From Candidatus Helarchaeota archaeon (GTDB taxonomy: Archaea > Asgardarchaeota > Lokiarchaeia > Helarchaeales > RDOG01), in NCBI GenBank assembly GCA_019058315.1, contig JAHPZH010000002.1, positions 1,101,910 through 1,165,909 of the forward strand: DNA of 64,000 nucleotides, given 5' to 3'. This document shows positions 579 to 59,793 of this stretch, piece after piece; the stretch's first letter is position 1, and the number at the start of each line of letters is the position of its first letter. The notes below the pieces were generated by a model. The model made no database searches, was not told the origin of the DNA, and worked only from the letters and a program-made list of their open reading frames with translations. The position numbers and the translations under genes are program-made.

Positions 579-1730
579 CTGGAATCAAATAATTATATTA
601 GGGTCCAATCGATAGATTTTATTCGTGGGCTTGCAATTATATTAATGATCTGGGCTCATTTAATGTGGTGGCTTGTTGATAGGCGTATAATTTATGCTTA
701 TTTTGGTTTTGGAAGCCCAATCGACATACAATTTTCATACACCGGCATCCCCTTATTTCTGCATCTTCTGGCTAATTACTATCCCGTTCCAGTATTTTTT
801 ACATTAACTGGAATATCTTTAATCCTATCTATAGAAAATAAGAAATCAAGCGGTATAACCGACTCAAATATTAGGATATATGTAATAAAAAGAACTGCAA
901 TTATTTTAATAATCAGTTATTTTGTTTTTAATTTATTAATAAAGGGACCAATTAGTGTCTTTTATCATTCCTTCAATATGCTCCATTTAATCGCTCTAGG
1001 GGGGCTGATTACTTATTTTTTGTTAAAATTTTCAAAAAAAATTCGTCTGGTAATAGCATCTATTATTTTAATAATCAGTCCTTTTATTCAAATTTTATTT
1101 AATTACGAGGAAATTCATTATCTATATCCTGTTCAAGGTGGAATTCTAAGCAATATGATTTATTCAGGAGAATTCCCAATATTTCCATGGCTTTTTTTTG
1201 TAATAATTGGGTCAATATTTGGAGAATTACTAAACGAAGCGTCAATAAATGAGAAAATTATTCCATTTTTGAAAAAAGAATTAATTTTAGGAATAATATT
1301 CACCATTTTAGGTGTAATAATTACTATATTTAATTATCCGCCTTTCACGTCATTTGAAAAATATCCATGCTCAATCCCTTATATTGTTTTTTTTACGGGA
1401 ACTGTCTTAATTACTCTCTCATTAACTTATTATTTCTTTGATTATCGAAAGAAAAAAGCCGGTTTTAGCGAACCTTTTATTCTCTATGGCACTTTTTCAT
1501 TAACAATTTTTATTGGCCATTATTATATAGGGTATAGACTGACAAAAATACTAGGAATTTATGAGAAATTTTCATATAGTTCCGCAGGAATTTTGACTTT
1601 AAGTTTTTACCTCACCTGTTGGGTGTTTTTAATAATTTGGGCAAATTATAATAATTACAAACTTTCTCTTGAATGGATTATGAAGAAAATAAGTTATAGA
1701 CATTTTAAAAAGAATGGAAAAGAAGAATAA
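579..1730 (+). CDS. DUF1624/HGSNAT-like multipass membrane acyltransferase
   Basis: Family N-terminal motif RVQSIDFIRGLAIILMIWAH begins upstream of the ORF-track ATG (645); FPIFPW motif; about 10 TM segments; proposed CTG start at 579 after GGTGG. Confidence 0.75.
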   Translation: MESNNYIRVQSIDFIRGLAIILMIWAHLMWWLVDRRIIYAYFGFGSPIDIQFSYTGIPLFLHLLANYYPVPVFFTLTGISLILSIENKKSSGITDSNIRIYVIKRTAIILIISYFVFNLLIKGPISVFYHSFNMLHLIALGGLITYFLLKFSKKIRLVIASIILIISPFIQILFNYEEIHYLYPVQGGILSNMIYSGEFPIFPWLFFVIIGSIFGELLNEASINEKIIPFLKKELILGIIFTILGVIITIFNYPPFTSFEKYPCSIPYIVFFTGTVLITLSLTYYFFDYRKKKAGFSEPFILYGTFSLTIFIGHYYIGYRLTKILGIYEKFSYSSAGILTLSFYLTCWVFLIIWANYNNYKLSLEWIMKKISYRHFKKNGKEE

Positions 1731-1735
1731 ATCTT

Positions 1736-3286
1736 TCAATTATCAGATTTTGCTTTAATATATTCATTAATTATGCCTTTTTTCCTAATCTCCAGTTCAA
1801 TAAAATCCCATGGTAAATCGAAATCCAATTTATAAGTTTTAGGAGTAAAATCGGAATCTTTTAATGCTTTATTCCAAGCTCCTAACCCTCCACCTAATTT
1901 AGCCACCATAGATATTATATCTCCAAATTTTGTATCTCCCAGAGATAGATAAGTTTGAATTCTAGCCCATCGAGGATCTAAAAAATTAGTTTTGACTTTT
2001 AAAATTTTCTTTAATTCTTTTATTTTATTTCTTAATATTTCTAAATCAATACTAGATTCCCATTGAAATGGTGTATGTGGTTTGGGAATGAAACTATTTA
2101 TACTCAATTTTAAATTAGATTCTCTAAAACCTCCTTGAATTACTTTTTGAACTAAATTTCCAATTGCTTCTACGTCTTCTGAAGTTTCTGAAGGTAAATT
2201 TAACATAAAATATAATTTCAAGTTCACAATTCCATTTTGTTTAACATTATATATGGCTGTAAGAACATCATTTATTGAAAAACCTTTATGAATAACTTTT
2301 AATAATCTCTCGGAGCCAACTTCCGGAGCCAATGTTAATGATTTCTGATTTCCTTTCTTTAATGCTTGAAGTAAGTCATCAGTAATGCAATCTACTCTCA
2401 AAGACGGAAGGGATAATTCTAAACCATTATTTACAATATACCAACAAATATCTTCTAAATTAGGATGATCAGACAATCCAGATCCAATTAATGATACTTT
2501 TTTTAATTGGGTAATTTCAATTCCTTCAGAAATTATCTGTTGGATCTGTTTGAATGACCGAAACCTAATAGGTCGTCCTTGATAACCTATTAAACAAAAT
2601 CTACAACCTCTATTACATCCTCTAGAAATTTCTAATAGAAATGATTTTCCAAGACTTGGAAAAAAAGGACTTTTAGGTTCGACTTGTGGCACAATTTGGC
2701 TGATTGAATGGGGACAATTATCTAAATTAGGTTCATAAATTTTTTTAACTTTGCCTTTAACATATTCAGGGACATAAAATCCTTCAAAACTTGCACATTG
2801 CTCCAAAAAATCTCGTTTATCATTTGCATTATTATAAGTATCTACAATTTTTTTTGCAACTGGCTCGAAATCTCCGATTACAAATAAATCAATAAAGGAA
2901 CTTAAAGGTAATGGATTTACCGAAAGAGGACCTCCTGCAATTAAAATTGGATGTGTTGTGTCTCTTTCTTTAGAATAAATGGGTATATTTGTTTTTAATA
3001 GAATTTTGAGTAAATTTATGTAATTTATTTCGAAATGTAAAGAAAAGGCTATAAAATCAAAACTTTCCAAACGTTGGTTAGATTCTAATGAGTAAGGGGC
3101 TGAATTATCAATTGGCAGGAATACTCGTTCACAAGATACATTTTCAAAAGAATTTAAAATATTATAAATTGTATGCATGGCTAAAGAACTCATTCCCACT
3201 CTATAAATTGAGGGAATACATAAGGCAAATTTAATTTTATTCCTTAAATCTTTTTTAATCGAATTAAATTCTAAAATTTTCATCAA
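1736..3286 (-). CDS. B12-binding-domain-type radical SAM protein
   Basis: EISRGCNRGCRFC (CX3CX2C), N-terminal AFSLHFE/AGGP domain, TLAPEVGSERL, FIPKPHTPFQW. Confidence 0.85.
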   Translation of the reverse strand: MMKILEFNSIKKDLRNKIKFALCIPSIYRVGMSSLAMHTIYNILNSFENVSCERVFLPIDNSAPYSLESNQRLESFDFIAFSLHFEINYINLLKILLKTNIPIYSKERDTTHPILIAGGPLSVNPLPLSSFIDLFVIGDFEPVAKKIVDTYNNANDKRDFLEQCASFEGFYVPEYVKGKVKKIYEPNLDNCPHSISQIVPQVEPKSPFFPSLGKSFLLEISRGCNRGCRFCLIGYQGRPIRFRSFKQIQQIISEGIEITQLKKVSLIGSGLSDHPNLEDICWYIVNNGLELSLPSLRVDCITDDLLQALKKGNQKSLTLAPEVGSERLLKVIHKGFSINDVLTAIYNVKQNGIVNLKLYFMLNLPSETSEDVEAIGNLVQKVIQGGFRESNLKLSINSFIPKPHTPFQWESSIDLEILRNKIKELKKILKVKTNFLDPRWARIQTYLSLGDTKFGDIISMVAKLGGGLGAWNKALKDSDFTPKTYKLDFDLPWDFIELEIRKKGIINEYIKAKSDN

Positions 3287-58632: not shown

Positions 58633-58743
58633 TTTCTCACATTATGAATTTTTATTAAAAAATGTTTAACACAATTATTAAAATGATTAATTAATCATCT
58701 AAAAAATAGATTTTACAAGTAAGAATTAAAATGGTGAATAAAA

Positions 58744-59793
58744 CTGGGGCAATCAGAAATCATTAAAGAAACTGACTTATTTGATGCTAAGGGTAATTTA
58801 ATTCAGACAGGTTGGGCAAAACGCCTTTTATTGAATTATAATCCCGAAAAGATGCGTGCAAAGCCCATCAGAATAAAGGAATGGGATTGTTATGTTATTT
58901 TAAATCCGGATTTTGGGTTAAGCTTAATAGTCGCGGATGTTGGGTATTTCGGGATGGGCACTGTAGATTGGAGGGATTTTAAAAAGAATAAAAGTCAAGG
59001 TGATCTTGCTCTTAAATTTGATTCTCCAGGAACAATGAATCTTCCTAGAACAGCAGACACTGGTGATGTTTTTTTTAAAGAGAAAAAAAGATGGATTAAA
59101 TTCGAGCGAAACAAGAATACAATCCCAAATCGTGTATTAACATTTGATTTTCCAAAGTTCAAATATGAAGGGCAAAAAGGGATCTCTGGCGAAATAACGC
59201 TCTACCAAGATCCCAAGCTTGATACGATGGTGAATGTTATACCCTTTAGGAATCCCAAACATTTCGTTTATGTCCAAAAAATCTGCTGTATGCCAGCAAA
59301 TGGGATCGTTCACGTAGGTGGTAAGACTTATGAGTTCCTAGGTGAGAAAAATAATAGTTGGTGTGCTCTGGATTGGAGTAGAGGTGTATTCCCAGTCAAA
59401 ACAGAATGGTGGTGGGCATTTGCATCGGGTATCGTAAACGGGGCCCATTTTGGGATGAACATCGATTATGGATTTGGGAAGAATCCAAGTAGTAAGAATA
59501 TGCTTTTTTATAATGGGAAAGGACATCATTTAGATAAGGTAACCTACACATGGGATGATAAGGATCTAATGAAACCTTGGCAGTTTACTAGTAATGATGG
59601 GCGTGTAGAACTCCAATTAGAACCCATTCATGAGCATAGATTGAAAATGAATGTCATGCTAATGTATCAAGAAGGGACTCATGCATTTGGATATTACACG
59701 GGAGATGTTGTGTTGGATGATGGAACCAAAATTCATATAGACCGCTCTGATAAGCTTTTCGGTTCTGCTGAATACTATGACCATGGCTGGTAA
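58744..59793 (+). CDS. DUF2804 family protein
   Basis: QSEI..LFDAKGNL..GWAK upstream of the ORF-track start; RIKEWD, LDWSRG..P..W.W; proposed CTG start after GGTGA. Confidence 0.75.
   Translation: MGQSEIIKETDLFDAKGNLIQTGWAKRLLLNYNPEKMRAKPIRIKEWDCYVILNPDFGLSLIVADVGYFGMGTVDWRDFKKNKSQGDLALKFDSPGTMNLPRTADTGDVFFKEKKRWIKFERNKNTIPNRVLTFDFPKFKYEGQKGISGEITLYQDPKLDTMVNVIPFRNPKHFVYVQKICCMPANGIVHVGGKTYEFLGEKNNSWCALDWSRGVFPVKTEWWWAFASGIVNGAHFGMNIDYGFGKNPSSKNMLFYNGKGHHLDKVTYTWDDKDLMKPWQFTSNDGRVELQLEPIHEHRLKMNVMLMYQEGTHAFGYYTGDVVLDDGTKIHIDRSDKLFGSAEYYDHGW

Follow-up and report, generated by a model that had tools for sequence, protein, structure and literature searches.

A 64,000-nucleotide stretch of the genome of Candidatus Helarchaeota archaeon (assembly GCA_019058315.1, contig JAHPZH010000002.1, positions 1,101,910 to 1,165,909 of the forward strand), hereafter the window, contains six protein-coding genes whose conserved N-termini lie upstream of any ATG, GTG or TTG, the three codons that are called canonical starts throughout. 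Near-cognate initiation, in genes that are intact and as a habit of the genome as a whole, is the best explanation for this arrangement, and one that we consider quite probable. No canonical start is available to these genes, the codons concerned (ATT, ATC or CTG) are positional homologues of ATG, and the segments that they open are under purifying selection. The sequence itself is correct, and across the genome near-cognate codons are enriched specifically at the spacing from a Shine–Dalgarno (SD) motif that canonical starts use. That ribosomes initiate at these codons, and that they insert methionine there, we infer from this combination of evidence.

The assembly is a metagenome-assembled genome (MAG) of 5.79 Mb in 12 contigs, with a G+C content of about 30%, a completeness of 94% and an estimated contamination of 6.6%. 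It was compared with two independent sister MAGs deposited at NCBI, GCA_013375355.1 (a syntenic contig of 60 kb) and GCA_048887025.1; with G001, the nearest member of the same family in GTDB; with G003, G005 and G006, which represent three genera at the level of the order; and with G010, a relative at the level of the class, of which 1.0 Mb was used. Independent contigs came from the Logan assembly of the likely source run.

Six genes without a canonical start

An earlier note on this DNA had claimed that in six genes no canonical codon lies between the in-frame stop and the conserved N-terminus, and this held for all six when the coordinates were rechecked letter by letter. It had also placed an SD-like pentamer 5–6 nucleotides (nt) ahead of each odd codon; the positions are as described, and the true SD core GGTG is present in only three of the six (spt4, DUF1624 and DUF2804). 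In the following entries, and in the text below, GGTGA-6-ATT stands for a motif and a codon separated by 6 nt.

579 to 1730, forward strand: DUF1624/HGSNAT-type acetyltransferase gene, read from CTG 579-581; TAA at 573-575; first canonical ATG at 645
568 to 572, forward strand: SD-like GGTGG, 6 nt before CTG 579
10945 to 12228, reverse strand: GlmU-like bifunctional sugar-1-phosphate nucleotidylyl/acetyltransferase (NTP-transferase) gene, read from ATT 12228-12226
12234 to 12238, reverse strand: SD-like GGCGA of the NTP-transferase gene, 5 nt before the ATT
21425 to 21610, reverse strand: spt4 (rpoE2) gene, read from ATT 21610-21608, directly after TAA
21617 to 21623, reverse strand: SD GAGGTGC of spt4, immediately past the rpo7 stop, 6 nt before the ATT
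32832 to 34001, reverse strand: serpin gene, start at ATC 34001-33999 (GGAG-9-ATC) or ATT 33965-33963 (GAGG-8-ATT; GAGGCGA-5-ATT)
39280 to 40365, reverse strand: longin/DENN-like gene, read from ATT 40365-40363, with AGTGG 6 nt before; first ATG is codon 50
58744 to 59793, forward strand: DUF2804 gene, read from CTG 58744-58746, with its first TTG at residue 32
58733 to 58737, forward strand: SD GGTGA of the DUF2804 gene, containing an in-frame TGA, 6 nt before the CTG

In five of the six genes a Pfam profile (HGSNAT/DUF1624, NTP_transferase, Serpin, Spt4 or DUF2804) reaches model position 1 or 2 upstream of the first canonical codon. Position 1 of PF07786 falls on residue 9 of the DUF1624 open frame, and the first ATG is residue 24; a start at this ATG, at 645, would cut the motif R-x-x-S-[IL]-D-x-x-R-G, upstream of which eleven paralogues from the same genome all start canonically. 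In the NTP-transferase, PF00483 begins with the residue right after the ATT, and the open frame has its first canonical codon, a GTG, at codon 39. Position 2 of PF00079 corresponds to residue 17 of the serpin frame, whose first ATG is codon 49, and position 1 of PF10974 to residue 5 of DUF2804. The spt4 frame is matched by PF06093 over model positions 1–77 and has no canonical codon ahead of its zinc ribbon and no usable downstream start. A Pfam search with the DENN-like protein returned no match; about 20 homologues can be aligned to its N-terminus (..IIFSQFDEKFGP..), and a lead from a language model (Atlas), to be taken as a lead only, points to a longin-DENN protein of the folliculin/SMCR8/C9orf72 type.

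Homology of the odd codons to canonical starts

The near-cognate codons align with the canonical starts of relatives. All 19 orthologues of the NTP-transferase have ATG AAA GCx, and proteins that begin MKAV, where this genome has ATT AAA GCT. The spt4 sequence ATT AAA GAA AAA GCC TGT aligns with ATG or TTG followed by AAA GAA AAA GCx TGT in orthologues, and in the three order-level genera (G003, G005 and G006), as well as in G021, spt4 likewise has ATT and no canonical start. The ATT of the DENN-like gene aligns with the ATG of homologues in G001, G012 and G021, and CTG GGG CAA of DUF2804 with ATG GGT CAA of a single homologous locus (L030). Four of the six genes (spt4, NTP-transferase, DENN-like and DUF2804) thus match in start position exactly; for the serpin the match is approximate, and for DUF1624 it is made by way of the paralogue motif. 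Since the start position of the DENN-like gene is occupied within one order by ACG (sister MAG, L228:7528-7530), by ATT (here) and by ATG (G001), start codons are labile.

Sister genomes and selection on the extensions

Comparison with related MAGs, which the earlier note had proposed, shows that the near-cognate arrangement is kept in both sister MAGs. In GCA_013375355.1, spt4 reads GAGGTG-7-ATT and the NTP-transferase gene AGGTGA-5-ATT directly after TAA, and NCBI annotates an ATT start for both; judged by this counterpart, the GGCGA of the NTP-transferase gene here is a decayed GGTGA. The serpin gene of the same sister MAG keeps both the ATC and the ATT, with the NCBI start call at the ATC, its DUF1624 gene has GGTGG-6-CTG behind TGA, the same arrangement as here, and its DENN-like gene has ACG exactly at the position of this genome's ATT. 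The DUF2804 protein of GCA_048887025.1 is 94% identical to that of the window; its gene keeps the CTG and the GGTGA, and the codon after the CTG is GTG, in place of the GGG of this genome.

Synonymous and non-synonymous differences between this genome and the sister MAGs were counted from the near-cognate codon to the first canonical codon. The NTP-transferase extension (27 codons before the first GTG) has 12 synonymous differences and no non-synonymous ones, the DENN-like extension (44 codons before the first ATG) 11 and 1, and the DUF2804 extension 5 and 2; for the serpin, from the ATC to the ATG, the counts are 6 and 11, which does not decide the matter. Upstream of the near-cognate codons the DNA has only 37–60% identity to the sister MAGs and is not alignable. 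This comparison appears to exclude truncated products as the main output of at least three of the genes.

No consensus error was found at the odd codons. Over 39200-59100, Logan contigs at a depth of about 18x show neither a difference from the window nor a gap, and this span includes the DENN-like ATT and the DUF2804 CTG; the sites at 579, 12226-12228, 21608-21610 and 33963-34001 are backed by the sister MAGs only, not by Logan contigs. A check of the public sequencing runs turned up no RNA run for this organism.

A short out-of-frame open reading frame at 546-581 (ATG GTG GTA AAT TCT GGA ATC AAA TAA) overlaps the DUF1624 CTG, and its counterpart in the sister MAG reads TTG GTG GTG AAT TCT GGA AAA AAG TAA. 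The frame has probably arisen as a by-product, from the SD motif combined with coding constraint.

Near-cognate codons across the genome

The 16S rRNA of this genome ends in GGATCACCTCCT, and the full SD complement is therefore GGAGGTGATCC. Genome-wide, the frequency of the core GGTG is at a peak 5 nt and again 7 nt ahead of the start, and most genes carry no SD of any kind. Canonical genes share the spacing seen at the odd codons, as the earlier note had said, and two genes of the window serve as comparators:

20547 to 20849, reverse strand: rps24e, GGTGA-6-TTG
43767 to 45188, forward strand: canonical gene, GGTGA-6-ATG

The 646 SD-linked canonical starts comprise 405 ATG, 214 TTG and 27 GTG, such that TTG is indeed very common, with rps24e as an example from a ribosomal protein gene. 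In an SD-anchored test, codons before the first canonical start were tabulated in open frames of at least 100 codons where they followed a 5-mer of GGAGGTGATC at an aligned spacing of 5–8, and ACG, ATT and CTG emerged as the three most enriched non-canonical codons. Against the overall background, ACG was observed 12 times with 2.9 expected, ATT 65 times with 41 expected and CTG 9 times with 2.9 expected; with near-cognates removed from the background, the expectations are 38.6 for ATT (p = 7e-5) and 2.7 each for ACG and CTG. No near-cognate excess was present at spacings of 1–4, 9–12, 13–16 or 17–20, so that the enrichment is limited to 5–8. The SD-linked excess amounts to about 45 near-cognate codons beside the 646 canonical starts, and behind an SD, ATT is about as common as GTG.

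A second test made use of paralogues: open frames of at least 150 codons were flagged if at least 8 residues before the first canonical codon aligned with paralogues. This flagged 47 of 2028 informative frames (2.3%) and recovered all four genes of the window that have paralogues, DUF1624 being one of the flagged genes. As a control for false positives, only 1 of 190 frames with an SD at the first canonical start was flagged, compared with 46 of 419 without one. A reciprocal homology test gave 8 of 269 here and 9 of 287 in the class-level relative G010. The three independent tests are in agreement and bear out the claim that the habit is pervasive and genome-wide, with 2.3–3% of the testable genes requiring a start of this kind. 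Given that the tests need a long stretch free of canonical codons, the rate was corrected upward, and we estimate that the true figure is 2–5% of genes, or some 100–300 genes. Annotated non-canonical starts make up about 0.05–0.1% in model bacteria (10.1101/063800), and starts at CTG, ATT, ATA or ATC have been reported in very few cases (PMC2830850). With 6 cases in about 60 genes, the window is denser in them than the genome on average.

Among the new cases are GGAGG-7-ATT ahead of an FAD-binding NEYDVIIIGSGLGG N-terminus (C3:707131), GGTGA-6-ATT (C3:120193), AGGTGA-7-ACG (C9:140118) and AGG-6-CTG ahead of a Rab-like GTPase (C3:1203941). The genome encodes fifteen DUF1624/HGSNAT and a dozen longin/DENN-like paralogues, several of which, along with Rab-like GTPases, are among the near-cognate candidates; the paralogue test favours large families, and no enrichment of any family is claimed.

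The start of the aIF1 gene

The initiation factor aIF1, which the earlier note had suggested for inspection, turned out to be encoded by a gene that itself most likely begins at a near-cognate codon. The single SUI1/aIF1 gene of the genome lies outside the window (G000:C7:109723-110064, reverse strand) and offers no canonical codon ahead of the zinc knuckle. Its sequence, GGAG-9-ATA GAA ATA TGT CCA AAA TGT, gives M-E-I-C-P-K-C, and it most likely begins at this ATA behind GGAG. A comparison of the aIF1 loci L164-L222 revealed a varied array of starts across families. About 17 loci of one family (f4) read stop..AGT ATT AAA GAC GAC GAx ATT TGT, one of them with ATC, and none has a canonical start. 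Two families (f1 and f2) have ATA, in f2 behind GGTGA, two others (f12 and f18) have AGGAGG-9-ATA, and one genome of f10 has CTG where its sisters have GTG, all of these ATA and CTG loci likewise lacking a canonical start; f3 and f5 have TTG, and the other families ATG.

In Sulfolobus solfataricus, aIF1 destabilises or blocks 30S complexes formed on AUU mRNA (Asano 2014, PMC4705826; PMC6237735). This organism is the only one in which aIF1 is known to discriminate against AUU (PMC4705826). Given a weak start on the aIF1 gene and rejection of AUU complexes by its product, negative feedback would be expected, and by analogy with infC and eIF1 the near-cognate start of aIF1 suggests such feedback on the stringency of start selection. 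We found no description of a feedback of this kind from the aIF1 start in the literature on archaea.

A proposed mechanism

In the mechanism that we envision, the initiator Met-tRNA would read a near-cognate codon in six intact genes: AUU in spt4, the GlmU-like NTP-transferase and the longin/DENN-like gene, CUG in DUF2804 and DUF1624, and AUU or AUC in the serpin gene. In at least three or four of the six, pairing between SD and anti-SD 5–8 nt upstream would place the 30S subunit. The habit would use mainly AUU, then ACG and CUG, with some AUA and AUC, and would be common to the class, with further instances elsewhere in Asgard archaea. Weak starts are presumed to be selected against only mildly, such that start codons would drift between ATG and near-cognates, with some weak starts, those of spt4 and aIF1 among them, retained over long periods. 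Because aIF1, the rejecter of non-AUG codons, would itself be made from an AUA start, it would exert negative feedback on stringency. Scanning the whole genome with aragorn found 26–27 tRNAs, including one tRNA-Met(CAT) with an intron.

Competing explanations

Several observations weigh against near-cognate initiation as just set out. The exact codon is uncertain in half of the six genes: CTG 579 is the start preferred for DUF1624, with ATT 576 as a less likely alternative; the serpin may start at either its ATC or its ATT; and in closer relatives of DUF2804 the next codon downstream, GGG in this genome, is GTG or TTG. The SD motifs of the NTP-transferase and the serpin are partial or decayed, and the AGTGG of the DENN-like gene is weak; beyond the window, over half of the homology-supported near-cognate cases (26 of 47) are without a clear SD. 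The rate estimates come from small counts and from a single author pipeline run on Asgard genomes only. Finally, near-cognate codons in Escherichia coli yield only 1–2% of the output of AUG (10.1101/063800), which means that an essential spt4 on AUU would need either more permissive machinery or a low demand for its product.

If the ancestral ATG had simply mutated, the six could be start-loss alleles that yield a truncated protein from the next ATG, GTG or TTG, or none. The changes would then be recent, since the G001 orthologues of the NTP-transferase, DENN-like and DUF2804 genes have ATG; the decay of the NTP-transferase SD from GGTGA to GGCGA, and the GGG of DUF2804 where the 94% identical strain has GTG, would fit. 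However, the extensions hold essential parts of the proteins (the zinc ribbon of Spt4, the GxGTRL nucleotide loop, helix A of the serpin), they change almost solely by synonymous substitution (12 to 0 and 11 to 1), the sister MAGs share the non-canonical arrangement, which for spt4 extends over three genera, and spt4 has no start downstream to fall back on; we consider start loss distinctly unlikely. Errors of assembly or consensus might be suspected in a MAG with an estimated contamination of 6.6%, either at the start codons themselves or, in the two CTG genes, as homopolymer indels by which an upstream ATG would be masked; each of these two genes does have, a short way upstream, an ATG out of frame within AAAATGGTG, and runs of A lie between. 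The identity of the Logan contigs over 39200-59100 and the recurrence of the same codons in two independent MAGs argue otherwise, as does the lack of conservation of that ATG ahead of DUF1624, where the sister MAG has ATT-GGTGG and reads ATTGGTGG, and such errors are scarcely credible. The same out-of-frame ATG, 7–10 nt upstream of the CTG in both genes, would be the start codon (ATG GTG ...) if these two genes were recoded by a frameshift into the main frame. That ATG belongs to the SD region and is absent from the sister MAG, no slippery site is evident for a shift that would have to occur within 3–4 codons, contigs from the source reads contain no indels, and the four ATT genes would be left unaccounted for, all of which makes recoding very improbable.

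The strong form of the earlier note's interpretation was that fidelity has been relaxed in this family in particular, with SD position as the main determinant. This would be in keeping with the 6 (perhaps 7) cases in about 60 genes of the window, with a TTG share of 33% among SD-linked canonical starts as compared with 10 of 68 in the G010 sample, and with an SD-linked near-cognate excess that is significant here; the 1-Mb sample of G010 gave 21 observed and 18.1 expected, which is not significant and has low power, there being only 68 SD-linked canonical starts. The homology test applied symmetrically, however, found equal rates in the two genomes, and other families and classes also have the ATT of spt4 and the ATT, ATA and CTG starts of aIF1, so that a relaxation peculiar to the lineage was not upheld. 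Nor was the dominance of SD position, as an SD of 4 nt or longer accompanies 21 of the 47 homology-supported cases (45%), compared with 38% of canonical starts. In this strong form the proposal seems to us rather unlikely. What did survive is its core, that initiation at ATT and CTG is the best reading of the six genes, given their conserved N-termini, aligned starts and selection on the extensions. The earlier interpretation is partly supported: near-cognate initiation, as the best explanation, is pervasive, yet a trait of the class or even the phylum and not a quirk of one lineage, and its dependence on SD is partial.

Other features of the window

A gene for Spt5/NusG with a KOW motif (27363-28016, reverse strand) reads GGTGA-6-ATA at 28010-28008, and its first canonical codon, TTG 28001, lies 15 nt from the SD; the ATA is a possible seventh near-cognate start of the window. 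Three further frames with long stretches before the apparent start (34770-35879, 54266-55714 and 13654-15141) were set aside, as plausible canonical starts are present. An open frame of 2497 amino acids occupies 3444-10937 on the forward strand and has an orthologue of 2501 amino acids in the sister MAG, with no Pfam family on record. Between 47168 and 48495, within a gene for a protein of 694 amino acids (46771-48855, reverse strand), contigs of related strains (runs X2-X4) cover the flanks and not most of the gene, which may be strain-variable. Scans of the 64-kb window for tRNAs and Rfam families returned no RNA genes.

Relation to known systems and significance

The closest bacterial counterparts are infC (IF3) and pcnB of E. 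coli, which like the genes described here have a near-cognate AUU start behind an SD. In infC the gene of a fidelity factor sits on a weak start and is autoregulated through the discrimination of IF3 against AUU; in the genomes compared here the corresponding gene would be that of aIF1, with AUA or AUU. E. coli has just two confirmed genes of this kind (10.1101/063800), as opposed to some 100–300 estimated here, ordinary enzymes included. IF3 is unrelated to aIF1, which has the SUI1 fold, and feedback for aIF1 is a hypothesis by analogy. Proteogenomics of Deinococcus deserti and Deinococcus-Thermus revealed an ATC start for dnaA, CTG for rpsL and ATA for infC (PMC2830850), which resemble the present cases in being conserved non-canonical starts on housekeeping genes, missed by gene callers and found via conserved N-termini. 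These are bacterial, confined to a handful of genes and backed by peptides, whereas the present ones are archaeal, extend to a few percent of genes and are known from sequence alone.

In eukaryotes, eIF1 autoregulates its synthesis by way of a poor context at its start (Ivanov et al. 2010, as cited in PMC6237735), which provides a homologous factor with a weak start of its own, and the eukaryotic hierarchy of near-cognates with single mismatches (CUG, ACG and AUU) is comparable to the codons enriched here (Asano 2014, PMC4705826). Eukaryotic ribosomes scan, and the eIF1 start is an AUG made weak by its Kozak context; in the present genes the ribosome would be placed by SD or other means, and the codon itself is non-AUG. 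Within the Asgard archaea, the sole published hint that we found concerns the tubulin AtubA of a Heimdall-group organism (Kariarchaeaceae), for which a "likely rare ATT start codon" with a ribosome-binding site rescues an N-terminally short deposited protein (PMC13394414); the remark covers a single gene and appears only in the methods section.

There are practical consequences for annotation, because gene callers limited to ATG, GTG and TTG shorten or lose these proteins. The public call for the DENN-like protein (P0206; window 39280-40230) has 316 amino acids from the first ATG in place of 361, with the loss of 45 conserved N-terminal residues, and the calls in the sister MAG are equally shortened for the DENN-like and DUF1624 proteins, the latter cut inside its catalytic motif. 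The systematic loss that the earlier note foresaw is therefore partial, as NCBI does call ATT or ATC for spt4, the NTP-transferase and the serpin in the sister MAG. Affected genes include eukaryotic-signature proteins that are modelled or expressed from such calls, as AtubA was.

A near-cognate rate some 20–50 times that of model bacteria bears on how stringency in the choice of start codons evolved from archaea to eukaryotes, and together with the AUA or AUU start of aIF1 in many Asgard lineages it makes for a concrete and testable feedback hypothesis. A more far-reaching idea, possible but in our view doubtful, is that Asgard archaea have a tunable, eukaryote-like stringency circuit in which aIF1, made from a near-cognate codon, keeps its own level and with it the stringency at a set point, by which a regulon of 100–300 near-cognate-start genes is co-regulated. 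If this were true, many eukaryotic-signature proteins, among them small GTPases and longin/DENN proteins, would belong to the proposed regulon alongside spt4, and stringency feedback of the eIF1 type would predate eukaryogenesis.

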